Positions 47,809 through 64,000 of a stretch of DNA of 64,000 bases are shown here, piece after piece. The stretch covers positions 956,419-1,020,418 of the forward strand of contig BQJK01000001.1 of NCBI GenBank assembly GCA_021604665.1. The letters are read 5' to 3'. The position numbers and the translations under genes are program-made. How positions within the stretch are numbered: position 1 is the first letter of the stretch; every line of letters begins with the position of its first letter. The notes below the pieces were generated by a model that searched no databases, was not told where the DNA came from, and saw only the letters and a list, made by a program, of their open reading frames with translations. Source of the stretch: Rhodomicrobium sp. GTDB lineage: Bacteria > Pseudomonadota > Alphaproteobacteria > Rhizobiales > HXMU1428-3.

Positions 47809-48199
47809 AACAACTACACTCCCCAAAAGCCCCAAACAAATCTGATAGTAAACCAATATAAAATTCTGAACAGCCCAGCCGAGTTGTTTTTACAAAGCAA
47901 CACTTTTTCCAAATCAATCCTGGCCACGAACATAACAACACGGCGAAGCCACAATAGCTCAGCGCCCAAACTGGTTAACATCTTTTAAGATACATGCACT
48001 CACCGGGTCCACTATTAAATTCAGATTTACCTCGACCGGCCCGCCCCTTCACAGTCCAGTTAGAGGCGCCGGATTAAATAATGCTAAGTATTTAATTAAC
48101 TAACCCAGAGATGAAAAAGCCAATAACTTGAAACACTAACCAGATACCGCTAACAATATAATTCCATTTAAATGAGTAAACGAGATTAAGAGTAAAATC

Positions 48200-48556
48200 A
48201 TGAACAAACCAAGCAATAATGATCTTTGGTATGCGTACCTAAGAGCCCATGAGGATGAAAGAACCAGAAACCTACATTACGCCGGCACTCTTCTCGGCAT
48301 CGGTATGTTCGTCTCTGCCATTTTGGTGATGCAGCCTCTGCTCATTCTCGCTGGTGTCATCGCAGCTTACGGTATGGCCTGGTTTGGTCACTTCACCATT
48401 GAGAAGAATAAGCCAGCCGCTTTCACCCGCCCCATTCTCTCTTTCCTCTATAATTTTAAAATGCTGTGGCTCTGGCTAAATGGCGAAGTTGATAAAGAGT
48501 TTGAAGCAGCGCTTAGTCAAAAGCCAAAAACAATTGGCGAAGAAAGCCCCGCTTAA
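48200..48556 (+). CDS. DUF962 / Mpo1-like membrane protein
   Basis: YLRAH...RNLHYAGT, AWFGHFTIEKNKPAAF. Confidence 0.88.
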   Translation: MNKPSNNDLWYAYLRAHEDERTRNLHYAGTLLGIGMFVSAILVMQPLLILAGVIAAYGMAWFGHFTIEKNKPAAFTRPILSFLYNFKMLWLWLNGEVDKEFEAALSQKPKTIGEESPA

Positions 48557-48612
48557 ACGAGTGTAAGATAATCTCTAGAGGGCGCGGTCCACGATAACCA
48601 AAACCTACCATG

Positions 48613-48668
48613 CCTGAAAAACAAAACACGGCCTGAAAAACAAGACATGACCTGCAAAACAAAAAAGG
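48613..48668. repeat. Three imperfect 19-bp tandem units CCTG(A/C)AAAACAA...
   Basis: Starts at 48613, 48632, 48651; ends 30 bp upstream of the 48699 gene. Confidence 0.85.
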
Positions 48669-48698
48669 CCCACCGCACATAATCTGAAGGAGTTTGCC

Positions 48699-49127
48699 AT
48701 GATGACCACTAAAATTAGCTCAAAACTACTTAGAGTTGCCATGCTGGCATTTGTCTCGCTTGGTCTGTCCTCGCTAGAAGCCTCGGCAGATCAACATATG
48801 AAGGATGGCACGATCCCCAATCTCATTGGCACCTGGTCTGGCAAAAACAACACCATCTCAGATAAAAAAGGTTACCTCACCAGAGACAAAACCATAGAGA
48901 TAACAGAACAGAAAGACCGCCGCTTTAAGGGCATTTTTAAATATGCTGAAGGCACAGTGAAATTTTTCGGGGTCATCTATCCCGATAATCTCTCCTTCAC
49001 ATGGGTCTCTGAAGGCAGCCGCGGTTATAATCAGGGCCGCATATTAGGAAAGTCAAAAATCAGCGCCTGCTATGTTGAATCTGGCATCGATGCCACCGCT
49101 GGCTGCGCTGAGCTAACCCGCCAATAA
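48699..49127 (+). CDS. Small secreted beta-rich hypothetical protein (lipocalin-like signature)
   Basis: Signal peptide ending ASA, PNLIGTWSG, C-terminal Cys pair; AAGGAG SD. Confidence 0.75.
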   Translation: MMTTKISSKLLRVAMLAFVSLGLSSLEASADQHMKDGTIPNLIGTWSGKNNTISDKKGYLTRDKTIEITEQKDRRFKGIFKYAEGTVKFFGVIYPDNLSFTWVSEGSRGYNQGRILGKSKISACYVESGIDATAGCAELTRQ

Positions 49128-49235
49128 AGGCGAGGTAAAAACGGCTCGCCCCCTGCAGATAAGCACCGTTAGCGCATGTGTAACTGTTAGTTAGCAAACA
49201 AGGCGGGGCTGATTAAACCATCAGATAAAAATAAA

Positions 49236-49268
49236 GCCGCCCCCTTCAGGTCAAGGTGAAGGGGGCGG
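49236..49268. terminator. Bidirectional intrinsic terminator between the 48699 gene and katG
   Basis: CCGCCCCCTTCA-N8-TGAAGGGGGCGG with T-rich tails on both strands. Confidence 0.85.
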
Positions 49269-49295
49269 TTTTGTTTATTTTAAAAGCTAGACAAC

Positions 49296-51491
<2,196 letters not shown>

Positions 51492-52502
51492 TTAAATTTA
51501 TAAATTGATCTGCCGCGCCATAAAGGCGCTCTGTTCAGTCAAATAACTCTTATTATTGTGTCAGCCTGACAACATAAGGCTAGTTGTCGACTGAGCTTAT
51601 AAATCACTGAAATATGAGGGGCAGATGGCATAATAAAAATCATGCGTCTTAAGCCCTTCAGATACCAGATTTACATCATCAGTAAAACTTGTATTTAATG
51701 ATTTATTGATTAGCTATGCTGATGGAGGTGGTCGTCTGCGCCAAGGCAAATGCCCACCTTCACCGCTAATCTTCTAGCATAGACGAAAAAAAGAGCGGTC
51801 CCCATAGGTGATATCTTGCACAATAAATACTGTTAATCCATCAGACCCAACAACCGATGAAACAACAACAGCGTATTACAGCTATGTTGATATGTTCGCG
51901 GCTCATAAAGATCAATGACCATGACTAAAGAGCGCTAACCCATAATAATCTCTTTGATTAGAATTAGCTCATCCACCGCCGTAAAGATAATATGCCCGGC
52001 TTCAGCACCAGGCTCTCAGCAACCATCCGCTATGGCTGAAAAAACAAAAGCCGTTTCTGACGAGAGCCCAAAATCAGAAAGAGCCACAAAATTAAATCCC
52101 TAATTTTTGACATAGTGAATATTAGGGATAAACCAGAAACCATATGGGCAATTATAACTATCAGGGTGTATAACTACATTGTTTGAAGAGAGGGGGAAGA
52201 TCTGCAAAAGATCGTCTCACCTTTTCAATTTGCCTGTGACCGGGGCTACAGAGCAGTGCCCCCGGTCACGGCGATACCCTCCACAAAAATCATAACCCAC
52301 AATAACATAGCTGCTGGCTATTCAATGCATTGGCAAAGAGAGCGCTCAAATATTCCGCCAACTAAGCCATTGATCACTGGTGGGAAAAACAACGCCTTTA
52401 TCACCATGAACAGTTTTCAGGAGCCCCCTGGCCGTGAAGAACGGCTTAAACAAGTTTGGCAAATAAGTGACAACCGCTAAAACGAAATGAAAGGCTTCGG
52501 GC

Positions 52503-53234
52503 CTACTCAGCGACCGCTTCAAAAAGATCAGGATAACGCGCCTTAACTTCAGCCCGTTTCGCCTCAATAGCCGCTTCATTCGCCCGGTCCGTCGGCAAAA
52601 TTTTCAAACGCTCACGCACACGGCCAGGCCGGGTGGTAATTAATAAAACCTCTTCACCAAGTTCCACAGCTTCACGCATGTCATGGGTCACCATCACAGC
52701 GGTTATCGGGTTGTCTTCCCACAATCGGCGCACAAGCTGGCGCAGCCTCGAAGCGGTTGGTGCATCTAGCGAAACAAAAGGTTCATCAAGCAATAATAGA
52801 TTTGGTTTCGTTGCAAACGCCCGCGCAATGCCAACCCGGCGCGCCAGACCAAGCGACAATTCAGAGGGAAAATTATCAACCAGCTCAGTTAGCCCCATCG
52901 CCTCCATCAGCTGGCTAAATTCAGCCTCACCAAACGTTGGGTCAGCCCGGAGCATCACATTGTCCCGAACGGAGCGCCATGGCAAAAGGCGCGGCTCTTG
53001 AAACACAAATCCAATTTTCGGCGGGGTCTCCCACTCCACCTTGCCTTTATAATGCGGGTCCAGCCCGGCAAGTATTCTGAGCAAGGTAGATTTACCGCAG
53101 CCAGATGGGCCAAACAAAACAGTGAAACTGTTTTTAGTCAGGGTGAAATGCGTATCCTCAAGCGCTAAAATCTTACCGCCATTGGCACTCGTATATATTT
53201 TTTCGTCTATATGAACCTTAAGCAGGCTCTGCAC
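52503..53234 (-). CDS. ABC transporter ATP-binding protein, NitT/TauT family
   Basis: GPSGCGKST, variant signature LSLGLARRV, LLDEPF; GTG start overlaps permease end. Confidence 0.9.
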   Translation of the reverse strand: MQSLLKVHIDEKIYTSANGGKILALEDTHFTLTKNSFTVLFGPSGCGKSTLLRILAGLDPHYKGKVEWETPPKIGFVFQEPRLLPWRSVRDNVMLRADPTFGEAEFSQLMEAMGLTELVDNFPSELSLGLARRVGIARAFATKPNLLLLDEPFVSLDAPTASRLRQLVRRLWEDNPITAVMVTHDMREAVELGEEVLLITTRPGRVRERLKILPTDRANEAAIEAKRAEVKARYPDLFEAVAE

Positions 53235-53964
53235 GCCAACGTGTTGCATAACGCTCCCACGGTTGAATAAACACAATTTCAATCACCAGCATCACCGCAA
53301 TAAAAGCAACGGAATAAGCAAAGATCGCCGCCACATTGAAGAGCTGAAAATAAGTATGGAGTTGGAAGCCAACCCCATCAGAGCGGCCGATAAACTCAAC
53401 CACCAAAACAATCTTCCATATCAATGACAAACCAGACCGCCCCGCCGCCGCTAAAAATGGCTGCAACTGCGGAAAGATAATATGCTGATAGCGCTGCAAA
53501 TTCGTATAACGGAAACTAGCCGCCATCTCATCCAGCTCAGCACTGAGAGACCGCGCGCCCTCGCGCAGCATCACCGCCACATTCGGCACCTTATTGATAA
53601 CAACAGCAAGAATGGCCGCTGTCTCCGTCAGGCCGCCCCAGATATAGCATAGGAATATGATAACAAGAGCAGGCACATTGAGAAAGAACACAAGCCAGGG
53701 GTCAAAAATGCCATTGAATAAATGGCTCCGCCCCATAGCAAGGCCAATCACCGTGCCAAGCAACATAGCAATCACAAAGCTGGCCATAACCCGCCATAGA
53801 GTAATAAACAGATGATAGAATAAATCCCCGTTTTGCACCTCATCGATCAGCGTCATGAATACTTTTTCAGGGCCGGGAAATAACCTGTCATTCACCAGCC
53901 AGGCCACAACAAGCCACAGCACCAAAAAACCAACAATCGATAACAGAGGATAGAACCGCCGCAT
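53218..53964 (-). CDS. ABC transporter permease, NitT/TauT family
   Basis: Six TM segments, EAA-like loop LDEMAASFR, EFIGRSDGVG. Confidence 0.9.
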   Translation of the reverse strand: MRRFYPLLSIVGFLVLWLVVAWLVNDRLFPGPEKVFMTLIDEVQNGDLFYHLFITLWRVMASFVIAMLLGTVIGLAMGRSHLFNGIFDPWLVFFLNVPALVIIFLCYIWGGLTETAAILAVVINKVPNVAVMLREGARSLSAELDEMAASFRYTNLQRYQHIIFPQLQPFLAAAGRSGLSLIWKIVLVVEFIGRSDGVGFQLHTYFQLFNVAAIFAYSVAFIAVMLVIEIVFIQPWERYATRWRAEPA

Positions 53965-53966
53965 AA

Positions 53967-54995
53967 CTACTCAGCCTTTTGCTCGGTTTCAACCGGTTGA
54001 GAGATATCACCCGTCAGCCAGAAGGTACCAGGACTTAGCGTTTTGGAATTGCCCACAAGTTTGCGGCCTCCAAGTTCCACCAGTACATTAAAAAGCCTTG
54101 CAACATCCGCCCGCTCAACAACAAGCGGCCGCCTGAGAATACCTATGCGAAATGATTTTTTCAGCGCTTCAAATGTTGCCTCATCTTCAGCCTTCATACG
54201 GGGGCGAATTTCCTCCCAGATGGCTTCATCCTTATCAAGAATTGCAATAGCATCCTGAATAGCTGAGAGAAACCCTCTTATTTGATCTTCATTGGCAGCG
54301 GCCCATTTATCGTGAAAAGCAAAGCCAATAGCGACAGTCGGGCCAGAAGTGCCAAGTCCGGTCATCACATCACCAACAGATAAAAGTGAGCGAAAACCTT
54401 TAGCTTCCAAACGCGCACTAAAATGCCAAAAGTTCAGAATAGCATCAAACTCACCGCGGATCATTTTCTGTGTCAACAAGGGCGGCGCCCCGTAAACAGG
54501 TGTCACGATCTCAGCAAGATCAACGCCAATAGTTTGCTTGGCGTAAGCGCGAAGGAACAACCAGCTTTTATCAAGCGGACCACCGGCAACGCCGAGTGTT
54601 TTACCCTTTAAATCCTCAAGCGACTTAATCGGAGACTCTGCCGCCACCATCAAATGACCAACAGCTGAACTATAAGGCACCATGGCAAAATCTGCGCCTT
54701 CAGCACGTTGCCTCGATATCCAGGTCCAGTCAGTTGCAACAATATCAGCCGAACCGCCCTGCAGAGCAATCTTGGCCCCATTCGTGTTCGCAAGCGGAAT
54801 AACACTCAACTTAAAGTTATGCTTCTCATCAAGTTTGCGCAGCTTCACCGTGTCCAGAACCCAGTTAACCGTTCCAAATTTTAAAGTCGCAACTCTGAGG
54901 GCATCAGCTGCTTGAGCTGGATTATTGCAGGCACTGCCGAAGCTAAGACATAAAACAACTAGGATGAGAGAGGTTAATCGCAAAATTGTCGTCAT
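53967..54995 (-). CDS. ABC transporter substrate-binding protein, NitT/TauT family (subtype seen with PQQ-ADH / lanthanide-uptake loci)
   Basis: Signal peptide; KFGTVNW, DWTWISRQR, PYSSAVG, GGPLDKSWL, YGAPPLL, LNFWHFSARLE; subtype call from memory. Confidence 0.8.
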   Translation of the reverse strand: MTTILRLTSLILVVLCLSFGSACNNPAQAADALRVATLKFGTVNWVLDTVKLRKLDEKHNFKLSVIPLANTNGAKIALQGGSADIVATDWTWISRQRAEGADFAMVPYSSAVGHLMVAAESPIKSLEDLKGKTLGVAGGPLDKSWLFLRAYAKQTIGVDLAEIVTPVYGAPPLLTQKMIRGEFDAILNFWHFSARLEAKGFRSLLSVGDVMTGLGTSGPTVAIGFAFHDKWAAANEDQIRGFLSAIQDAIAILDKDEAIWEEIRPRMKAEDEATFEALKKSFRIGILRRPLVVERADVARLFNVLVELGGRKLVGNSKTLSPGTFWLTGDISQPVETEQKAE

Positions 54996-55153
54996 ATATA
55001 TAGACACCTATTCGATAGAATTTGTTATGTCTGAAGGGCTGAACGCCCTTTGCTGGCGGTCTTTTACTAATTTATTTAGCTTTATTTTTGGCCATAATTT
55101 TCAGACCAAACTTTTCTCTAGAGAGACCATGCTTCCTGTAACCACCTATCTTT

Positions 55154-55183
55154 AAACCCAGTCACTTAAAACCCAGTCACTTA
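55154..55183. repeat. Perfect 15-bp tandem duplication AAACCCAGTCACTTA x2
   Basis: 55154-55168 and 55169-55183, in the divergent promoter region. Confidence 0.95.
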
Positions 55184-55446
55184 TCATGATTGTCTAGTTC
55201 AAAACCATCATCACCCTAAAATGGATAGGGGTAGCACTGGAAATTGCACAACCACATATTACATATGCACCTAACGTTTATGCACTTATTAAACTGGTTA
55301 CGTAAAAACTGGCGTTAACTAACTTAAGGTTCAAGCCAGAATGGCTAATATAGACAGAGTGGCGAAACTATCCAGATGGTTGGCACATATGCCAACCCCA
55401 CTAGCCTCAATAATCAATAACCTAACGTAGGGGTCTTGAGAAAATA

Positions 55447-56154
55447 ATGAGAAACAAGATCTTAAGCCTATTCATCTTTATGATGGGGCTATTCGCAGCA
55501 CTTACCACACCGCTCCTCACAGCGCGGGCTGACGACACCTCAGAAAAGCAACGCCAAACCAACACCCCAAGCCTCAAAACCCCAAAGCGCGAATTAAAAA
55601 TCACAAAAGGTGCTGAGCCACCAATAATTTGGCACAAACGATACCGCCACATAGATAAAGTAACAGGGCTAAGAACCGCCTATTACCGTGCGGCGCTCCC
55701 CCCCAAAGTGCCCGGCGGCACACGAATAGATGTAAAACAGGCCTATGATCATTACAAAAACAAAGACGCGCTTTTTATTGATGTAATGGCCCACACAGGC
55801 ACCGGCCCGGACCCAATAGATGGCTATTGGCGGCTTTCAGAACCGCGAAGCAATATACCGGATAGCTATTGGCTGGCAGATGTTGGCACAGGCACCCTCA
55901 CACCTGAAATGCAGCACTATTATAAAGAGAACCTAAGGAAGATAACAGGCGGCGATAAAACAAAAGCGCTCATTCTCTATTGCACCGCAGATTGCTGGAT
56001 GGCGTGGAATGCCGTGCGGCGAGCGTCTCGCCTTGGTTACACAAATCTGCTCTGGTTCCCAGAAGGCAGCGACGAATGGAGCGCCGCCGGTTATCCATTA
56101 AAAAACTCTATCCCGATACCGCTGGACTTAGATGAAAACATAGAGGAAGAATGA
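55447..56154 (+). CDS. Exported rhodanese-like protein, PQQ-dependent catabolism-associated CXXCW type
   Basis: Signal peptide; YYRAALP..VPGG, FIDVM, IPDSYWLADVG, LYCTADCWMAWNAVRRA, WFPEGSDEW. Confidence 0.85.
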   Translation: MRNKILSLFIFMMGLFAALTTPLLTARADDTSEKQRQTNTPSLKTPKRELKITKGAEPPIIWHKRYRHIDKVTGLRTAYYRAALPPKVPGGTRIDVKQAYDHYKNKDALFIDVMAHTGTGPDPIDGYWRLSEPRSNIPDSYWLADVGTGTLTPEMQHYYKENLRKITGGDKTKALILYCTADCWMAWNAVRRASRLGYTNLLWFPEGSDEWSAAGYPLKNSIPIPLDLDENIEEE

Positions 56155-56384
56155 ATTCACATTCTTCAGCCTGGCCCCCAAATCATTTGGCAGCAGCCTT
56201 CAAACAAAACAGCTGGAAGATGAATCACATGCTGTTTTAGAGTTACAGCCATCACATTCACGTGAAGCATTCGACTTTACGCCAATATCAGAGAGCATTT
56301 AGCAAGCTCCGCGCTAGACCAGCTCGCTCCCCCCCCATAAACTTCATTACAATATTCTCAAATCTGCACACCACAACTGTGCAG

Positions 56385-56414
56385 AACACAACAATGCGTA
56401 ACACAACACTGCGT
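56385..56414. repeat. 15-bp tandem duplication AACACAACA(A/C)TGCGT x2 next to an 8-bp hairpin
   Basis: Units 56385-56399 and 56400-56414; TCTGCACA/TGTGCAGA at 56363-56385. Confidence 0.85.
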
Positions 56415-56654
56415 AATAAAGATACCAGCAGTGAAACCATACCTGGTCCCAGCACCGCATTAGGAACTGCCCTCTAAAGCATTGCGCAACCGACTTAACA
56501 AACAAATGAATGAGGCAACACAGAACCAAGCCACTACAGAGATAATTCACAGCCCCTCAAGGGCCGTAAGACAGCAAGTAAATAGAGATAAAACCACCAA
56601 GCTATCGCAACAATAAATAACAGGGCCAAAACAGGCCCATTGGGAGCATAATAA

Positions 56655-57263
56655 ATGACGACGCCCTCCACTATAATAAAGAGAAGATCAAAACGCCTGT
56701 TTCTCCCAGCGCTCGCCCTCCTGGCGGCGCTGAGTACCCTGCCAATAACAACAGCCTCCTTTGCAGCAGATGACACTGCAAGCGAAACAAAAAAAGTCAC
56801 CCTCATTGGCAAGGATGGCAGCCGCCTGGAAATTGCCAGCGTCACCCTTACAAAGACTGAGGAAGGCGAAAAAATCAGCATAAACTTCATCGAAGATCGC
56901 TTTTCAGAACATTTCCTCTCCATGCGGCCTTTCAAGTGCATAGATGGCGACCAAACCCTCTGTCACTTGCCCTACCCCTATAAAACCAAAGACATTATCA
57001 CCAAAGATAATTTGATGGACCTCGAATATAAGCTGCTCTTCATCCATAAGGGTGCCGGCGAATATGGCATTAACTTTTGGAATGGCGTTTATTATCGCCT
57101 AAAACGCGAACATGATGGCAGCTTCACAGGTGTCGTATGGGAAACAGATATGGACGAGCTTGCCGCCCCGCCGGAAGTAGAATACTCGCGCCCAATCGGT
57201 GGTGATGACCTTTCAGAAGGCGCTGAAGGAAAGCACCGCTATCCACTTGTAGAAATCAAATAG
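56655..57263 (+). CDS. Conserved exported protein of unknown function
   Basis: Signal peptide (RR-containing n-region); HFLSMRPFKC, DLEYKLLF, YGINFWNGVYY, ETDMDELAAPP motifs that I associate with PQQ-ADH neighbourhoods. Confidence 0.75.
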   Translation: MTTPSTIIKRRSKRLFLPALALLAALSTLPITTASFAADDTASETKKVTLIGKDGSRLEIASVTLTKTEEGEKISINFIEDRFSEHFLSMRPFKCIDGDQTLCHLPYPYKTKDIITKDNLMDLEYKLLFIHKGAGEYGINFWNGVYYRLKREHDGSFTGVVWETDMDELAAPPEVEYSRPIGGDDLSEGAEGKHRYPLVEIK

Positions 57264-58131
57264 CTTGATCGTCAAAGGTAATGAATATAGCAGCAGCAAC
57301 TGGGATAACTGACGGCAAGTTGGCACAAAGCAACCGCACTTTCATGTCATTATATGCAATTATAACATATGTGACCAAGCGCTAGGGGCAAACACTATAC
57401 CTTCGCATTAAAGCCCCCTTTAGAGCCTCGTCGAGCCTGTTGAGTTATGCTAACATCGACAACAAGGAACCATGATATTCATGTGTTTTCATGCCTGTAG
57501 CTTCTAAAACATTTGGTGCAGAATCAATCGCTTAAAACCTCACCGGCAAGGTAAAATTTAAACCTCCTTACCGATGAACAGAGCCCGGATTGAGACCAAA
57601 CCATTTTCAGACCTTGTTTGTATGAGACTACAAAACAATGAGACCATGAAAGTGTATTTAAAAGAGTTCCAGTTACTAGTCTGTAATTCATCCACGAAAG
57701 GGAGGTTGTCATAAATAACCCTAAAGGGCTTACTCACTAAATCTCAGAATTTCCCTATAGCTCATCATCTATTATTGTTCCCAATCGCTTGGGGCCACAA
57801 ATACCGGCCCTGCTAACAAGCCACAAAGAACACTGGATTGAACTGAGCTGGATTTATTTAGCGTCTGCTAAATTAAGAGCCGTGATTTTAGTGATAGACC
57901 TGACAAAAACGTCAAAACGCATGTGGTTATTTAAAGACATATAACAAAGGCAGTCGCCGCTATTACTGAGCAATCAGCTAAGCACCGGCACCATAAAGCC
58001 TTGAGACCTCTCAATAAAAAGAAGATGAAAAAACAGAATTTGGCCGTCGCTAGCATAACAGCTGCTGGGGCCAAACTGTACATAAGAGAGAAGTTGCTTT
58101 TAAAGCATAGAAAAAATTAAGGAGGGCGCTC

Positions 58132-58608
58132 ATGCAGCTCGCGCTGGTATTAGATCCCGCAAAGTGCACATCGTGCAAACAATGCGAAATGGCTTGTGCC
58201 TACGAGAACGAACAAACATTCAACCCGGCTAAATCCCGAATTCGTATTTTCGATTTCCATGAAGATGGCCGCTTTGTACCCTACACCTGCACCCAGTGCG
58301 ATGAAGCCTGGTGTCAGCAAGCCTGCCCGGTTAACGCCATCACCACAGACCCTGCCACCGGCGTTAAGCTGGTACATGATAATCTCTGCGTTGGCTGTAA
58401 AGTCTGCACAATCGCCTGCCCATTCGGCACCGTGAATTACAATGCAGCAACCGGCAAAGTAATCAAATGCGACCTATGCATGGGCGATCCAGCCTGCGCG
58501 AAAGCCTGCCCGACTGGCGCCATCACCTATTCAGATGTTGAGCAAGCAGGGTTTGACAAAATGAGAGCCTGGGCCGCCAAAACGGATTCCGGCGCACAAG
58601 CAACGTAA
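58132..58608 (+). CDS. aorA: 4x[4Fe-4S] polyferredoxin subunit of tungsten aldehyde oxidoreductase
   Basis: 16 Cys in four ferredoxin motifs; C-terminal helix GFDKMRAWAAK; AAGGAGG SD. Confidence 0.9.
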   Translation: MQLALVLDPAKCTSCKQCEMACAYENEQTFNPAKSRIRIFDFHEDGRFVPYTCTQCDEAWCQQACPVNAITTDPATGVKLVHDNLCVGCKVCTIACPFGTVNYNAATGKVIKCDLCMGDPACAKACPTGAITYSDVEQAGFDKMRAWAAKTDSGAQAT

Positions 58609-58672
58609 ACTATATGCGCCCATACCTGGCACAGCTTACGGCAAATAAAATTTCGTCAAGGGAGATGTCCTC

Positions 58673-60526
58673 ATGGCTTGGACACGAAAAGTACTAAGAA
58701 TTAATCTCACTTCAGGTGAGATCACAACTGAGCCCCTAAATATGGAATGGGCTCAAAAATATCTCGGTCAGCGCGGTCTGGCGACAAAATACCTAGTGGA
58801 AGAAACAGACCCGAAGGTTGATCCGCTTTCACCAGATAACAAAATGATCTTCGCAACCGGCCCGCTTACCGGCACATGCGCCTCAACAGGCGGCCGTTAT
58901 TCTGTCATCACCAAAGGCCCGCTTACAGGCGCAATCGCCTGCTCCAATTCAGGCGGTTACTTCGGACCAGAGCTTAAATTCTCTGGCTATGACATGGTCA
59001 TCCTTGAAGGCAAATCACCAAAACCGGTTTACCTCTCAATCTTTGATGACAAAGTAAAACTTCGCGATGCGTCTCATCTTTGGGGCAAATCTGTGTGGGA
59101 TACTGATGATGCTATTAAAGCTGAAGTCCAGGATCCGCTCGCCCACGTTGCCGCCATTGGCGTCTCCGGCGAAAAAGGTGTGCTCTACTCTTGCATCGTC
59201 AACAACAAGCACCGGGCAGCCGGTCGCTCAGGTGTTGGTGCTGTAATGGGCTCCAAAAACCTGAAGGCAATTGTCGCCAGAGGGTCAAACGGTGTCACCG
59301 TTGAGCAGCCACAGGAATTCTTTGCAGCCACTGATGCCGGCAAAAAAGTTCTGAAAGAGAATGCCGTGACAGGTGAAGGCCTCCCAGCTTTCGGCACGCA
59401 GGTTCTAATGAACGTCATCAACGAAACAGGCGCCATGCCAACCCGCAACTGCCGGGATGTTCAGTTTGAAGGCGCGCATGACATTTCAGCTGAAGCCATG
59501 GCAGAGCCGCGCCGCTCAGATGGCAAAGCTAACCTTTCAACAAACCAGGGCTGTTTTGCCTGCACCATCGCCTGTGGTCGTGTTTCCACTATCGACCCGC
59601 AGCACTACACCCTGCAAGGCGAAGGCAAGGATCAATATAAGCACGCCTCAGGTGGCCTTGAATATGAAGCAGCCTGGGCCCTTGGTTCCGCCACAGGTGT
59701 TAACGATCTAGACGCGCTGACATATGCTCAGTTCCTTTGCAACGAACATGGCCTCGACCCGATTTCACTCGGCGCGACCATTGCAGCAGCTATGGACCTC
59801 TATGAAGAGGGTGTCATCAACCAGGATATCACTGGTGGGCTAGACCTGCGCTTCGGCAATGCAAAAGCATTGACAGAAGCAGTAGAGCTAACCGGCACAG
59901 CTGAAGGTTTTGGTGTCGAGCTTGGCCTCGGCTCTGCCCGCCTATGTGCCAAATATGGCCGCCCGGATCTATCCATGACGGTTAAAAAGCAGGAATTCCC
60001 TGCTTATGACCCACGCGGCATTCAAGGCATGGGCCTCACCTATGCCACTTCCAACCGTGGTGCTTGTCACCTTCGCTCCTACACAGTGTCATCAGAAGTG
60101 CTTGGCATTCCTGAAAAAACTGACCCACTGGTAACTGAAGGTAAGGCCGCCCTTGTGAAAGCCTTCCAGGACGCCACAGCCGCTGTCGATAGCGCAGGTA
60201 TCTGCGTCTTCACGACCTTCGCCTGGACAATGGAAGACATTGCCCCTCAGGTGAATGCAGCTTGTGAAGGCAATTGGTCCGTTGATGCACTGATGGAAGT
60301 CGGTGAACGCATCTGGAATCTTGAGCGTCAGTATAATATGGCCGCTGGTATCCTCGGCGACCAGGACACCCTACCGCAGCGTCTTCTTAAAGAAGCCGCT
60401 AAAGTTGGCCCGGCTCAAGGACTGGTGAATGGCCTCGATAAAATGCTGCCAGAATATTACGAGCTTCGTGGCTGGTCTACAGATGGCACACCAACAGGTG
60501 AAACGATCTCTCGTTTAGGCCTGTAA
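58673..60526 (+). CDS. aorB: Tungsten-containing aldehyde:ferredoxin oxidoreductase catalytic subunit (AOR/WOR family)
   Basis: KGPLTGAIACSNSGG, HRAAGRSGVGAVMGSKNLKA, CFACTIACGR, EYE, GLDPIS, VKKQEFPAYDPRG, SNRGACHL, YYELRGW. Confidence 0.95.
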   Translation: MAWTRKVLRINLTSGEITTEPLNMEWAQKYLGQRGLATKYLVEETDPKVDPLSPDNKMIFATGPLTGTCASTGGRYSVITKGPLTGAIACSNSGGYFGPELKFSGYDMVILEGKSPKPVYLSIFDDKVKLRDASHLWGKSVWDTDDAIKAEVQDPLAHVAAIGVSGEKGVLYSCIVNNKHRAAGRSGVGAVMGSKNLKAIVARGSNGVTVEQPQEFFAATDAGKKVLKENAVTGEGLPAFGTQVLMNVINETGAMPTRNCRDVQFEGAHDISAEAMAEPRRSDGKANLSTNQGCFACTIACGRVSTIDPQHYTLQGEGKDQYKHASGGLEYEAAWALGSATGVNDLDALTYAQFLCNEHGLDPISLGATIAAAMDLYEEGVINQDITGGLDLRFGNAKALTEAVELTGTAEGFGVELGLGSARLCAKYGRPDLSMTVKKQEFPAYDPRGIQGMGLTYATSNRGACHLRSYTVSSEVLGIPEKTDPLVTEGKAALVKAFQDATAAVDSAGICVFTTFAWTMEDIAPQVNAACEGNWSVDALMEVGERIWNLERQYNMAAGILGDQDTLPQRLLKEAAKVGPAQGLVNGLDKMLPEYYELRGWSTDGTPTGETISRLGL

Positions 60527-60537
60527 CAATTAAAAAA

Positions 60538-60569
60538 GCGGCCCCAGCCATAAGCGCGGGGCCGTTTTT
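60538..60569 (+). terminator. Terminator-like hairpin between aorB and aorC
   Basis: GCGGCCCC-N12-GGGGCCGT followed by T4. Confidence 0.65.
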
Positions 60570-60776
60570 CAACCTAATAAATACATAAGAAATAGCGATA
60601 GGTTGTTCACCTCTTAACAGAAGGCAAAAATGCCTAAAGAGGTCTTTGAATATAGGGGAAGTGTTCTTTTAACTGGCCGGGAATAGGACGCCTGGGCAAA
60701 ACCATCTTGCCAGACGACCCGGCCCCCTCATTCAAAAGACGGTTCAACCGACAACATATATTAAAGGAATGCTGCC

Positions 60777-62033
60777 ATGCATTATCTTGTTTTGGGGGCC
60801 GGCCCTGCTGGCGTAACAGCCGCGGAAACCCTACGCAAACATGACAAATCCGCCAAAATCACTCTCCTCGGCGGCGAGCCGGAACCACCCTATTCTCGCA
60901 TGGCCATCCCCTATTATCTGATTGAAAAAGTCGGTGAAGACGGCACATATCTCCGCCAGACAGAAGGCCATTATGAACAGCATGGCATTGATTATGTCCA
61001 TGGCACTGCTGTTGCGCTCCAGGGCAAGGCAAAACGCCTGAAGCTAGAAGATGGCTCCGAACTCCAGTATGACAAACTACTGATCTGTACTGGCGCCAGC
61101 CCAATCTCCCCGCCGGTCCCGGGCCTTGATCGCCCCGGCATACATAATTGCTGGACCCTGGAAGATGCCCGCCACATCGCAGAGCTCTCACAAAAAGGCG
61201 ACCCTGTCGTACTAATGGGCGCAGGCTTCATCGGCTCCATCATCCTCGAAGCGCTCGCCCTTAAAGGCGTAAACCTAACAGTGGTTGAGATGGGAGACCG
61301 CATGGTCCCACGCATGCTGGATGAAACAGCCGGCAACATGCTGAAAGATTGGTGCATAGATAAAGGCGTCCGCGTCCTGACCAGCACCCAGATTTCAGAA
61401 GTCACAGATGGCTCTGAAGGCTTAACAGTTCACACCAAAGGCGGCGAAGCGCTAGATGCAAGATTATTGGTTGTCGCCGCGGGCGTGCAACCCAATATCA
61501 GCTTCCTTGCCTCAAGCGGTGTAGAAATCGACCACGGCATCATCGTTGATCAATATATGCGCACCAGCGTACCAGATGTTTACGCCGCAGGTGATGTTTG
61601 CCAGGCAATCGACTTCTCAACTCAAAAAGCTGAAATGCTGGCCATTCAGCCTGTAGCCGTAGAGCATGGCCGCATTGCCGCACAAAACATGGCCGGCAAA
61701 CCAACCCCCCATGAAGGCAGCCTGAATATGAACGTGCTTGAAGCCATGGGCCTCATCACAGCCTCCTTCGGTCTCTGGATGGGCGTTGAAGGCGGCGATA
61801 GCTGCCGCATGCATGACCCGGAGAACAACCGCTACTTACGGCTGGAGTTTGATGGCAACAAACTGGTGGGCGGCCAATCTGTAGGGTTAACCGAACATGT
61901 CGGCATGTTGCGCGGCCTCATCCAAACCGAGCTGGACCTTGGCGAATGGAAGAATAAGCTCATGAAATCACCAGAGCGCCTACCAGAAGCATATGTCGCT
62001 GTAGCCCAGCACAACTTTAACATTTCAGCTTAA
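60777..62033 (+). CDS. aorC: FAD/NAD(H)-dependent oxidoreductase subunit of AOR
   Basis: GAGPAG FAD motif, GAGFIG NAD motif, YAAGDV; AAGGA SD; position after aorB. Confidence 0.88.
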   Translation: MHYLVLGAGPAGVTAAETLRKHDKSAKITLLGGEPEPPYSRMAIPYYLIEKVGEDGTYLRQTEGHYEQHGIDYVHGTAVALQGKAKRLKLEDGSELQYDKLLICTGASPISPPVPGLDRPGIHNCWTLEDARHIAELSQKGDPVVLMGAGFIGSIILEALALKGVNLTVVEMGDRMVPRMLDETAGNMLKDWCIDKGVRVLTSTQISEVTDGSEGLTVHTKGGEALDARLLVVAAGVQPNISFLASSGVEIDHGIIVDQYMRTSVPDVYAAGDVCQAIDFSTQKAEMLAIQPVAVEHGRIAAQNMAGKPTPHEGSLNMNVLEAMGLITASFGLWMGVEGGDSCRMHDPENNRYLRLEFDGNKLVGGQSVGLTEHVGMLRGLIQTELDLGEWKNKLMKSPERLPEAYVAVAQHNFNISA

Positions 62034-62086
62034 TAATAAGGCTTTAAAAGCATAATAAGCAGTGATTACACACTGCACTTTCTCTC

Positions 62087-62123
62087 ACCGCCTCAGGGCA
62101 TTGCCCTGTTGGCGGTTTTTTTT
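62087..62123 (+). terminator. Intrinsic terminator after aorC
   Basis: ACCGCC-T-CAGGGC-ATT-GCCCTG-TT-GGCGGT followed by a long T-run. Confidence 0.85.
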
Positions 62124-62269
62124 AAGTTAAACTCTCTAAGGAACCGACTTGTAAATCTCATAGTTTTTTCAGAGCTTTATCATTTTCTGTTGAGTTTAAG
62201 TCACGACATCTACCCATTTTCGTTTAAAAAACACAATCCTGCCTCAATAAGCTTCCCCCCCTTGCAAAT

Positions 62270-62285
62270 GTTAAGTATCCATTAA
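62270..62285. promoter_or_regulatory. CtrA-consensus box upstream of the acidic beta-barrel gene
   Basis: GTTAA-GTATCCA-TTAA (TTAA-N7-TTAAC on the minus strand), 70 bp before the ATG, adjacent to TTGCAA. Confidence 0.45.
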
Positions 62286-62355
62286 AGTCAACGTATCATG
62301 GCGTTGCTACTTTAAAACAAGCAGCCTGTTACCATTACTTTTTGGGGGATAATTA

Positions 62356-63180
62356 ATGAATAAATACGCAATCGCATCACTCACATGCGCCTCTTTGCTG
62401 CTCGCAGCAAATCCAGCCTACGCCATCAGCCTTGAAGAAGCTGGCGTCGAAAAAGGCGAAGTCGAACTTCAGTATGAAGCAACCTACACTGATAAAAACG
62501 CCGAAGGTGCCTATGAGCATGAAGAAGAAATCGAAGTTCAAATGGGCCTGACAGACTGGTTGCTGCTCACCGTTGGCTTCGGTTTTGAGGAAGAGGAAGG
62601 TGAACGGGATTTTGAATTTTCCGAACTTGAGGGCTCAGTTCAAATTGAACTGGTTGATCCTGAAAAAGGTGGATTTGGATTTGCCCTTCTCGCTGGCTTT
62701 AGCAAAGAGTTCGCCGCAGAATCGGGAGAAGAGGACGAAAACACCTACAAGATTGGTGCCATTGCCGAGCACCACTACAATAAGTGGCTGTTCAGAGGCA
62801 ATCTGTTTTACATCTCCGATATTGACGGCGACGGCGAAGAAGAATTTGATGGCGTAGAATATGCCTATCAAATCAAATACGACGTTAGCGAAAAGCTCGG
62901 CGTCGGCGTTGAAGGCTACGGCACTCACCAGGAATTTGATGACCCAGGCGAAGATGATGTTGACCAGCACATGGTTGGCCCGGTTCTCTACTATAGCTTT
63001 GAACGTGGAAATGATACCAGCCGCCACGCGTCCATTAAAGATGTAGCTGAAATTGGCGGCGAAGACGGTGATGACGAAGATGAAGGCATCGAATTCGAGC
63101 TTCAGGCCGGCGTGCTGTTTGGCACAACGGACGACACCGCTGATGTGACTTATAAATGGGGCCTTGAGATCGAATTCTAG
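62356..63180 (+). CDS. Highly acidic outer-membrane beta-barrel protein (putative porin)
   Basis: Signal peptide ending AYA, alternating amphipathic strands, C-terminal YKWGLEIEF; about 69 Asp/Glu versus about 15 Lys/Arg in 274 aa (hand count). Confidence 0.8.
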   Translation: MNKYAIASLTCASLLLAANPAYAISLEEAGVEKGEVELQYEATYTDKNAEGAYEHEEEIEVQMGLTDWLLLTVGFGFEEEEGERDFEFSELEGSVQIELVDPEKGGFGFALLAGFSKEFAAESGEEDENTYKIGAIAEHHYNKWLFRGNLFYISDIDGDGEEEFDGVEYAYQIKYDVSEKLGVGVEGYGTHQEFDDPGEDDVDQHMVGPVLYYSFERGNDTSRHASIKDVAEIGGEDGDDEDEGIEFELQAGVLFGTTDDTADVTYKWGLEIEF

Positions 63181-63218
63181 GTTTTTCTCCTGGCACAGTA
63201 AATTTTCCTGGCACAGCC

Positions 63219-63254
63219 AAAAGCAGCAAGTCATCTCCGGCTTGCTGCTTTTTT
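63219..63254 (+). terminator. Intrinsic terminator after the porin gene
   Basis: AAAAGCAGCAAG-N10-CTTGCTGCTTTTTT. Confidence 0.85.
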
Positions 63255-63323
63255 GTTGGCTTATTGTTTATTGAGTTCTACGCGCCCAGCCATTAAAATC
63301 GGATGAAATGGAGAGACTTGATA

Positions 63324-63575
63324 ATGGATGTAACCCTGAAACTATATGCAACCCTAACGCCCTTCCTGCCCTCAGGTGCGGAGAAAAACCAGATTTCTAT
63401 AGATGTCTCAGAAGGCAGCTCAGTCATGGACATTGTAGATAAATACCAGCTGCCAAAAGAAAGCTGCCACCTCATTCTGGTAAATGGCAATTACACGCCT
63501 TTAGCTTCTGCTGACCAGAAAATCCTTGTAGAAGGTGACACCCTGGCTATATGGCCCCCCGTTGCCGGTGGGTAG
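63324..63575 (+). CDS. moaD: MoaD/ThiS ubiquitin-like sulfur carrier (AorD-like)
   Basis: LILVNG, GDTLAIWPPVAGG C-terminal di-glycine; GGAGA SD before ATG 63324. Confidence 0.9.
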   Translation: MDVTLKLYATLTPFLPSGAEKNQISIDVSEGSSVMDIVDKYQLPKESCHLILVNGNYTPLASADQKILVEGDTLAIWPPVAGG

Positions 63576-63855
63576 CCCATATCCCCATTCTATATATATT
63601 GGCTATTACCGATATAAAGCGGCGGTTTAAAAAACGAGAGGGTTAAGAATCTAACGGCTTTAAAACAACTGGGCACCCCTGGTTTTATTAGAGAGCTCTC
63701 AGAAAACCCCTCATTTTCTAAGAATAAGCCGTTTTATTGCATTTTTTAGGCTCAGATTCTGTTTTATGCCTAAGAGCTGATGCGCTATATTACAGACAAG
63801 TTAAAACACAGAGCCAAAGCCATTATGCTAAGGCTCACCAACGGGAGATAGCATT

Positions 63856-63945
63856 ATGAAAAATTGGACAACACCACAAGTTTCTGAAACTGAAACAGGC
63901 ATGGAAGTAACTTCTTATATGCCTGCTGAACTTGACCGCGCATAA
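63856..63945 (+). CDS. pqqA: PQQ precursor peptide PqqA (29 aa, MKNWTTPQVSETETGMEVTSYMPAELDRA)
   Basis: GGGAG SD 8 nt upstream; W-x-x-P leader and GMEVTSY core with the E-x3-Y pair; too short for the ORF track. Confidence 0.9.
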   Translation: MKNWTTPQVSETETGMEVTSYMPAELDRA

Positions 63946-63968
63946 GCGATTAAGTTTCTATATATGAA

Positions 63969-64000
63969 AACCGGCGGTTGAGAGAAATCTCCCGCCGGTT
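63969..64000 (+). terminator. Hairpin after pqqA (terminator or stabilising stem)
   Basis: AACCGGCGG...GAGA-GAAA-TCTC-CCGCCGGTT; any T-tail lies beyond the window edge. Confidence 0.7.

Follow-up and report, generated by a model that had tools for sequence, protein, structure and literature searches.

A predicted PqqT-type ABC transporter operon for pyrroloquinoline quinone in a Rhodomicrobium genome

The closest described relative of the system treated here is PqqT of Methylorubrum extorquens AM1, a periplasmic protein that binds pyrroloquinoline quinone (PQQ) and was crystallised with it (9B1U; PMC11331073, PNAS 2024). The dissociation constant quoted for PQQ is about 50 nM (Ho & Cotruvo 2019, as cited in PMC11331073 and in bioRxiv 10.1101/2024.06.04.597491), and PqqT has been proposed to help PQQ uptake (bioRxiv 10.1101/2024.06.04.597491; PMC11331073). 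A second ATP-binding cassette (ABC) system, the Lut transporter of M. extorquens, is more than 50% identical to PedA1, PedB and PedC and more than 43% identical to PedA2, a YVTN beta-propeller, of Pseudomonas putida (Wehrmann 2019, PMC6839425); LutA, LutE and LutF are its periplasmic, ATP-binding and membrane components, their family not being named in that source (Sci Rep 2020, PMC7391723). Here we analyse a three-gene operon at positions 52503-55007 of a stretch of 64,000 nucleotides of Rhodomicrobium sp. (contig BQJK01000001.1, positions 956,419 to 1,020,418), which is called the window in the following. As far as sequence can tell, this operon is the counterpart of the PqqT system and a further member of a known family, not novel in kind, and it likely encodes a PqqT-type binding-protein-dependent ABC system for PQQ.

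Kinship of the binding protein with PqqT

In a phmmer search against all PDB sequences the binding protein of the operon found the PqqT entries 9b1u, 9b1v and 9ooz first (E 5e-74), the next relevant match being SsuA (2.7e-4 and 3.5e-3). Its residues 34-329 align to residues 2-297 of the PqqT chain over 296 residues, with zero gaps and 43% identity. An AlphaFold (AF2) model of the protein, built on a 14-sequence alignment and having a mean predicted local distance difference test (pLDDT) score of 87.2, was matched by Foldseek to the three PqqT entries with template modelling (TM) scores of 0.91-0.93, a root-mean-square deviation of 2.0-2.3 Å and 43% identity (best E 5e-36). The first hit after PqqT had an E of 1e-16 and 19% identity, and the runners-up SsuA, Thi5, ThiY-like and TauA were found at E 1e-16 or weaker with 12-23% identity.

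PQQ is contacted in PqqT by the side chain and backbone of T41, by the backbone of L37, A42 and G112 and by the side chains of K142 and N143, while Y188 pi-stacks on it and I222 is nearby; mutation of K142 cuts the affinity for PQQ 50- to 150-fold (PMC11331073). These positions were transferred to the window protein by means of two offsets, one of 27 between the crystallised chain and the published numbering, which is set by the title of entry 9OOZ ('Y161W'), and one of 32 between the chain and the window protein, which is set by the ungapped alignment. L37, T41, G112, K142 and I222 are found again as L42, T46, G117, K147 and I227, A42 corresponds to V47, N143 is replaced by Ser (S148) and Y188 by Phe (F193). 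Conservation was then read from 129 homologues out of about 130 loci: K147, G117, D93 and R99 do not vary, all of them have Phe or Tyr at position 193, Thr is found at position 46 in 123 and Ser in the other 6, and Ser, Asn or Gly stands at position 148.

In a maximum-likelihood tree of 120 members the family is continuous and its clades are coherent by lineage; the AM1-like 'N-R-L' type makes up one branch. The window protein clusters with those of five marine genomes, which carry the labels Methyloligella, Rhodomicrobium, Hyphomicrobiales or Hyphomicrobiaceae, and this cluster is placed beside the Methyloceanibacter clade. The exact AM1 peptide was present in 0 of the ~130 fetched loci, and the degenerate patterns of the scan for related loci exclude the AM1-type 'GGALDK/DLIF' variant; the neighbourhoods that we call AM1-like are those of loci from the AM1-like branch, which have xoxF, a MoxJ-like gene and a gene for the PQQ-dependent catabolism-associated CXXCW protein (CXXCW) downstream.

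The operon, its ATPase signature and its gene context

Read from the open reading frames (ORFs), the operon consists of three close-packed minus-strand genes in the order binding protein, permease and ATPase. The sequence-only reading had described it in these terms, as divergent from a PQQ-type rhodanese gene, and the ORFs, their strands and the Pfam and TIGR03865 matches bear this out. The gene for the binding protein extends over 53967-55007 when started at a GTG (346 aa) or over 53967-54995 when started at an ATG (342 aa), the ATG at 54995 being favoured because a 96%-identical database protein has 342 aa. Its product, a predicted periplasmic and PQQ-binding protein of PqqT type, matches Pfam NMT1 weakly (8e-10). 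Export is indicated by a hydrophobic helix at the N-terminus, residues 3-25 of the model, that is followed, as judged by inspection, by AQA and AD; cleavage of the predicted signal peptide is probably after AQA (residue 33), and the start of the mature protein is aligned with residue 2 of the crystallised PqqT chain.

The permease gene (53218-53964, minus strand, 248 aa) starts two bases past the end of the binding-protein gene and encodes a type I fold ABC importer permease (Pfam BPD_transp_1, 1.1e-16), in the translation of which an EAA-like coupling loop, EMAASF...IIFPQL, was recognised by eye. The ATPase gene (minus strand; Pfam ABC_tran, 1.1e-27) occupies 52503-53282 as the longest ORF (259 aa) or reaches only to the ATG at 53249 (248 aa), which is the probable start since an in-frame stop closely precedes the corresponding Met of an orthologue in one of the closest related loci. 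A BPD_transp_1 permease with an EAA-like loop and an ABC_tran ATPase with intact motifs were thus found together, as in type I binding-protein-dependent ABC importers, the signature being non-canonical.

The Walker A, Q-loop, Walker B (DE) and H-loop of the ATPase are intact, and the motifs GPSGCGKST, FQEPRL, LLLDEPF and VTHD are kept across the orthologous ATPases. The signature, at residues 142-146 of the longest ORF (bases 52845-52859), is LSLGL and replaces LSGG[QM]. That LSLGL stands in place of LSGGM had already been remarked from the letters alone; the translation confirms it, and the comparison makes it a trait of the family, as 91 of 96 orthologous ATPases have LS[LIV]G and the pattern LSLG[LM] is family-wide. 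Within the genome LSLGL is unique among the 35 ABC nucleotide-binding domains that were detected by pattern; in 31 of these the third residue is G. As the ATPase is presumably a homodimer, the variant signature would be present in both ATP sites.

The divergent intergenic region between the binding-protein gene and the CXXCW gene (55008-55446, read directly from the sequence) presumably holds both divergent promoters. Scans for promoter and terminator consensus sequences around the operon gave matches no commoner than in shuffled sequence, and no Rfam match was obtained in 48000-64000. The binding protein is single-copy in the genome, no further NitT/TauT-like binding protein or permease being found at E < 1e-3, and most genomes with a PqqT-type binding protein carry one copy. 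In one locus from the family of Microvirga (L137, G126:C1:3028801-3030804) two tandem pqqT-like genes precede one permease and one ATPase gene and adjoin xoxF.

The link with PQQ was followed in other genomes. A scan of the GTDB species genomes yielded upwards of 594 loci, and the neighbours were tallied in the best 80 of them by clustering the ORFs and annotating the commonest clusters. Almost all of about 100 loci have the genes in the order binding protein, permease, ATPase. The neighbours recorded are PqqB (31/80 loci), a histidine kinase (28/80), a PedC-type permease (TIGR03861, 25/80), an acidic outer-membrane barrel like that of the window at 62356-63180 (25/80), a response regulator (20/80), a PQQ methanol/ethanol dehydrogenase (TIGR03075, 19/80), MoxJ_2 (16/80), a quinoprotein-associated SoxYZ-like carrier (15/80), CXXCW (at least 14/80) and a quinoprotein relay metallohydrolase (SoxH-like, 11/80). 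About 30 of about 100 related loci have a CXXCW homologue at most 10 kb away. Our second sample comprised 151 genomes from the family of Microvirga (probably Beijerinckiaceae), where 20 further loci gave the same neighbourhood picture; in the related loci taken together, pqqB and XoxF-type, MoxJ-like and PedC genes adjoin the operon. The statement of the sequence-only reading that this binding-protein subtype is found beside genes for PQQ alcohol dehydrogenases is supported by these PQQ dehydrogenase, pqq and XoxF neighbours. In the 151 genomes pqqC is present in 50 of the 55 that have the binding protein and in 20 of the 96 that do not (Fisher p = 6e-18, kinship ignored). The five carriers in which no pqqC was seen (G001, G006, G082, G109 and G123) may be PQQ auxotrophs using salvage or incomplete assemblies.

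In the window the first pqqA copy (63856-63945, plus strand), one of two identical tandem copies, encodes the peptide MKNWTTPQVSETETGMEVTSYMPAELDRA, which ends in an E-x-x-x-Y motif. The second, identical copy is 498 bp downstream (G000:C1:1020772 onward), and pqqB, C, D and E lie just beyond the window end, with pqqC and pqqE at G000:C1:1021984-1024205 and above their cut-offs, so that the pqqAABCDE genes start ~9 kb from the transporter operon. Of the PQQ dehydrogenases encoded by the genome (2.9 Mb, 98% complete), five score above the family cut-off and a sixth falls just short of it. No TonB-dependent receptor was found in the genome above the Pfam cut-off, and for this reason no outer-membrane importer of LutH or PqqU type is expected there.

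Divergently from the operon, the plus-strand gene at 55447-56154 encodes the exported, rhodanese-like CXXCW protein (TIGR03865, 170.2 bits vs a cut-off of 128). A second PQQ_CXXCW gene (201 bits) is located on another contig, at C2:164889-165362. Further along the window follow, all on the plus strand, a gene for an exported protein of 202 aa without Pfam or NCBIfam match (56655-57263), which was seen only in the five closest relatives and always between the CXXCW and aldehyde oxidoreductase genes, and a tungsten-type aldehyde:ferredoxin oxidoreductase trio (AorABC, 58132-62033) made of an Fe-S subunit, an AFOR_N/AFOR_C subunit and a PadH-like FAD subunit. Next to these are the gene for the acidic outer-membrane barrel (62356-63180), with weak Phenol_MetA_deg and OMP_b-brl matches, and a ThiS/MoaD-like ORF of 90 aa (63303-63575). 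The block of the oxidoreductase trio and the ThiS/MoaD-like ORF is syntenic with the pqqT operon in four of the closest related loci (L011, L013, L014 and L015), the contig of the last ending inside the block. Homologues of the barrel are situated ~3.9 kb upstream of pqqT in 25 related loci, and in loci of Methyloceanibacter type between pqqB and the two-component genes; in genomes that lack TonB receptors, PQQ or cations could cross the outer membrane through this barrel. On the other side of the operon the listed neighbour in the window is KatG, and the ~1-kb gap between katG and the ATPase gene contains only short ORFs (at most 77 aa). A 142-aa ORF without Pfam match (48699-49127, plus strand) is kept downstream of the ATPase gene in four close relatives, with 58-69% identity.

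Role of the operon and competing explanations

In the reading favoured here, the secreted binding protein would capture free PQQ in the periplasm with high affinity, by analogy with PqqT, and would pass it on to the permease, a homodimer powered by the likewise homodimeric ATPase, following the logic of type I importers. PQQ would in this way be moved into the cytoplasm, as has been proposed in the literature. The purpose in this PQQ-producing organism would mainly be to recapture or retain PQQ, whether self-made or of the community, that otherwise leaks through the outer membrane. Since pqqC is found in 50/55 carriers vs 20/96 non-carriers, the system appears to belong mainly to PQQ producers and not to auxotrophs, and such predominance in producers suggests that recapture or retention of a costly, leaky cofactor fits better than pure scavenging.

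Several points weigh against this reading. What has been published for any homologue is PQQ binding by the AM1 protein, and the identity between the window protein and the characterised PqqT is only 43%. In the branch of the window protein the pocket-adjacent residues W94, W96, S98 and R101 are invariant or nearly so, and AM1 PqqT has L, F, A and G there; the low-occupancy Gd site of PqqT, N70 and R74, has become T75 and K79. The LSLGL signature might lower the ATPase activity, and the statistic of the association with pqqC takes no account of phylogeny. Moreover, PQQ is to our knowledge used only in the periplasm, and because it acts there, its import into the cytoplasm would have no obvious use in a PQQ maker.

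In a first alternative the binding protein does bind PQQ and the system has a role other than bulk import: PqqT may mainly be a periplasmic buffer or chaperone that loads apo-dehydrogenases, or a slow transporter of LSLGL type may report the periplasmic PQQ level to the cytoplasm or remove damaged PQQ adducts. It draws on the 50 of 55 carriers that also make PQQ (pqqC), a cofactor known only from periplasmic use, on the family-wide non-canonical ATPase signature and on the two-component system that is a frequent neighbour. However, almost all of the about 100 loci have the three genes together, and the catalytic residues have stayed intact, as would be expected of a transporter that works; we consider this role rather unlikely. 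Related to it is the idea that the transporter is a device working slowly and under regulation to retrieve or sense periplasmic PQQ, which might feed back on pqq/xox expression or clear PQQ adducts. The occurrence mostly in PQQ producers, the periplasmic use of PQQ and LSLG[LM] in both ATP sites led us to this proposal, which we put forward very tentatively, as a doubtful one.

A further alternative is that the operon imports a lanthanide or a lanthanide chelate, the binding protein bringing Ln3+ or Ln-PQQ to the permease. The family often adjoins a PedC-type (Lut/Ped) transporter and XoxF-type dehydrogenases, PqqT is reported to be upregulated by lanthanides in M. extorquens, and PQQ-bound PqqT binds several Ln3+ ions 1:1, weakly (PMC11331073). 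Nevertheless, wild-type PqqT binds metals weakly and without selectivity, which was judged unlikely to matter biologically, and the metal site of PQQ is filled and shielded by the invariant Lys, K147 in the window protein (PMC11331073). In addition, the genetically proven LutAEF/PedA1A2BC transporters belong to a different family (PMC6839425) and are encoded elsewhere in the genome (PedB being inferred), which makes a lanthanide substrate very improbable. The sequence-only reading had named a lanthanide (chelate) or PQQ itself as the substrate; PQQ stands, on the PqqT match and the kept contacts, and the lanthanide falls with the different family and the weak metal binding. It had also treated as established that LutAEF is annotated in the NitT/TauT family, which was wrong: Lut resembles PedA1A2BC (PMC6839425), unrelated to the window proteins.

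To judge from its protein sequences, the window operon is not a Lut/Ped-type lanthanide transporter. We take TIGR03863 to be the PedA1/LutA binding protein, TIGR03866 the PedA2 propeller, TIGR03864 the ATPase and TIGR03861 the PedC/LutF permease of ABC-2 type, and Lut/Ped is an ABC architecture different from that of the window operon. In an NCBIfam scan the window proteins had no match to TIGR03863, TIGR03866 or TIGR03861 (the ATPase model TIGR03864 was not searched). The genome has its own PedA1, PedA2 and PedC clustered on another contig (C2:76398-80410), PedB being inferred from the gap between PedA2 and PedC, and the PedA1 copy is the profile match to TIGR03863 at C2:76398-77441. By BLASTP the window binding protein showed no similarity to this PedA1 (E = 12), nor did the window permease to the genome's PedC (E = 1.7).

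Some other observations were made on this subject. A second PedA2-like beta-propeller (C1:839004-839921) adjoins a PQQ dehydrogenase (C1:842751-844343). No lanmodulin-like EF-hand repeats were found in the 20 loci from the family of Microvirga, and a literature search on CXXCW with lanthanides and on NitT/TauT with lanthanides found nothing useful. Among the candidates considered from the screen in Sci Rep 2020, orf6 and orf7 appear there only with unknown function, and META1p2359, a fused exporter, is a different kind of protein.

The label given by routine annotation, that of an ordinary importer of aliphatic sulfonates, taurine or nitrate, appears with the database homologues as 'NitT/TauT family transport system substrate-binding protein' and can draw on weak SsuA_fam, SsuC, TauB and NMT1 matches and on a fold class shared with SsuA and TauA. 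In NCBIfam the binding protein scored 35.8 bits with SsuA_fam against a cut-off of 163.5 and the permease 89 bits with SsuC against 347, its SsuC/SaoP-like scores being ~90 bits vs cut-offs of 295-347; TauB gave 147.6 bits vs 357 and ntrB 46.2 vs 209, and none of the curated cut-offs for SsuA, SsuC, TauB, TauC and NrtB is reached by the window proteins. No ssuD/E, tauD-like or nitrate-assimilation neighbours were seen in the window or in the annotated common neighbour clusters, ssuD and tauD not having been specifically searched. With scores three- to five-fold under the curated cut-offs, 16-23% identity to the SsuA/TauA structures vs 43% to PqqT, and annotated neighbours that are PQQ-related and among which no desulfonation genes were seen (within that same limit on ssuD/tauD), such an importer is scarcely credible. 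The sequence-only reading had doubted a sulfonate or nitrate importer and had foreseen that routine annotation would mislabel the operon; the sub-cut-off scores, the identities and the gene context support the doubt, and homologues that are labelled NitT/TauT and are nevertheless closest to PqqT support the forecast.

Comparison with described systems

The founding protein of the family, PqqT, is already characterised biochemically and structurally, and the kind is therefore already known. What the comparison adds is the fixed gene order, the kept ligand contacts, the LSLG[LM] signature, the bias towards PQQ producers and the occurrence without a TonB receptor above the cut-off. It also corrects a systematic mis-annotation, since thousands of family proteins that are labelled NitT/TauT, NMT1/THI5 or 'ABC transporter substrate-binding protein' belong with a protein shown to bind PQQ, and it separates the Lut/PedA1A2BC lanthanide transporter from the PqqT-ABC system, two systems that are often side by side and easily confused. 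Why an organism that makes PQQ should import it becomes a sharper question. Should the slow sensing or retrieval device be true, it would amount to a role in cofactor homeostasis, and we know of no ABC importer for which a role of such kind has been described.

Among the known systems PqqT of AM1 is the nearest, having the same fold, length, signal peptide and PQQ contacts (Thr, backbone Gly, strained Lys and stacking aromatic) as the window protein. The window and the PqqT-type homologous loci are alike in their pqq/quinoprotein neighbours and in the type I permease and ATPase that follow the binding protein. They differ in that the window gene adjoins the CXXCW gene and the tungsten aldehyde oxidoreductase cluster, whereas xoxF is the probable neighbour of AM1 pqqT, and in that the window protein belongs to the branch of Methyloligella-like marine genomes, outside the AM1-like one. 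The helix after strand 3 also differs, reading DWTWISRQR in the window protein and DLIFAARLG in AM1 PqqT.

LutAEF and PedA1A2BC resemble the PqqT systems in being ABC transporters of PQQ-dehydrogenase neighbourhoods, the two often being adjacent to each other; however, their family (TIGR03863, TIGR03866, TIGR03861) is unrelated to that of the PqqT system. The SsuABC and TauABC transporters (SsuA 3E4R, 3KSX and 2X26; TauA 6SSY) agree with the window system in the class II fold of the binding protein, in the type I permease, in the subfamily of the ATPase and in the operon logic, but are set apart from it by an identity of 16-23%, by different pocket residues and by an LSGG[QM] signature instead of LSLGL. 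PqqU (YncD), the TonB-dependent outer-membrane PQQ importer of E. coli, also captures PQQ with high affinity (bioRxiv 10.1101/2024.06.04.597491), although it does so in a different membrane and with a different fold from the PqqT-type system.

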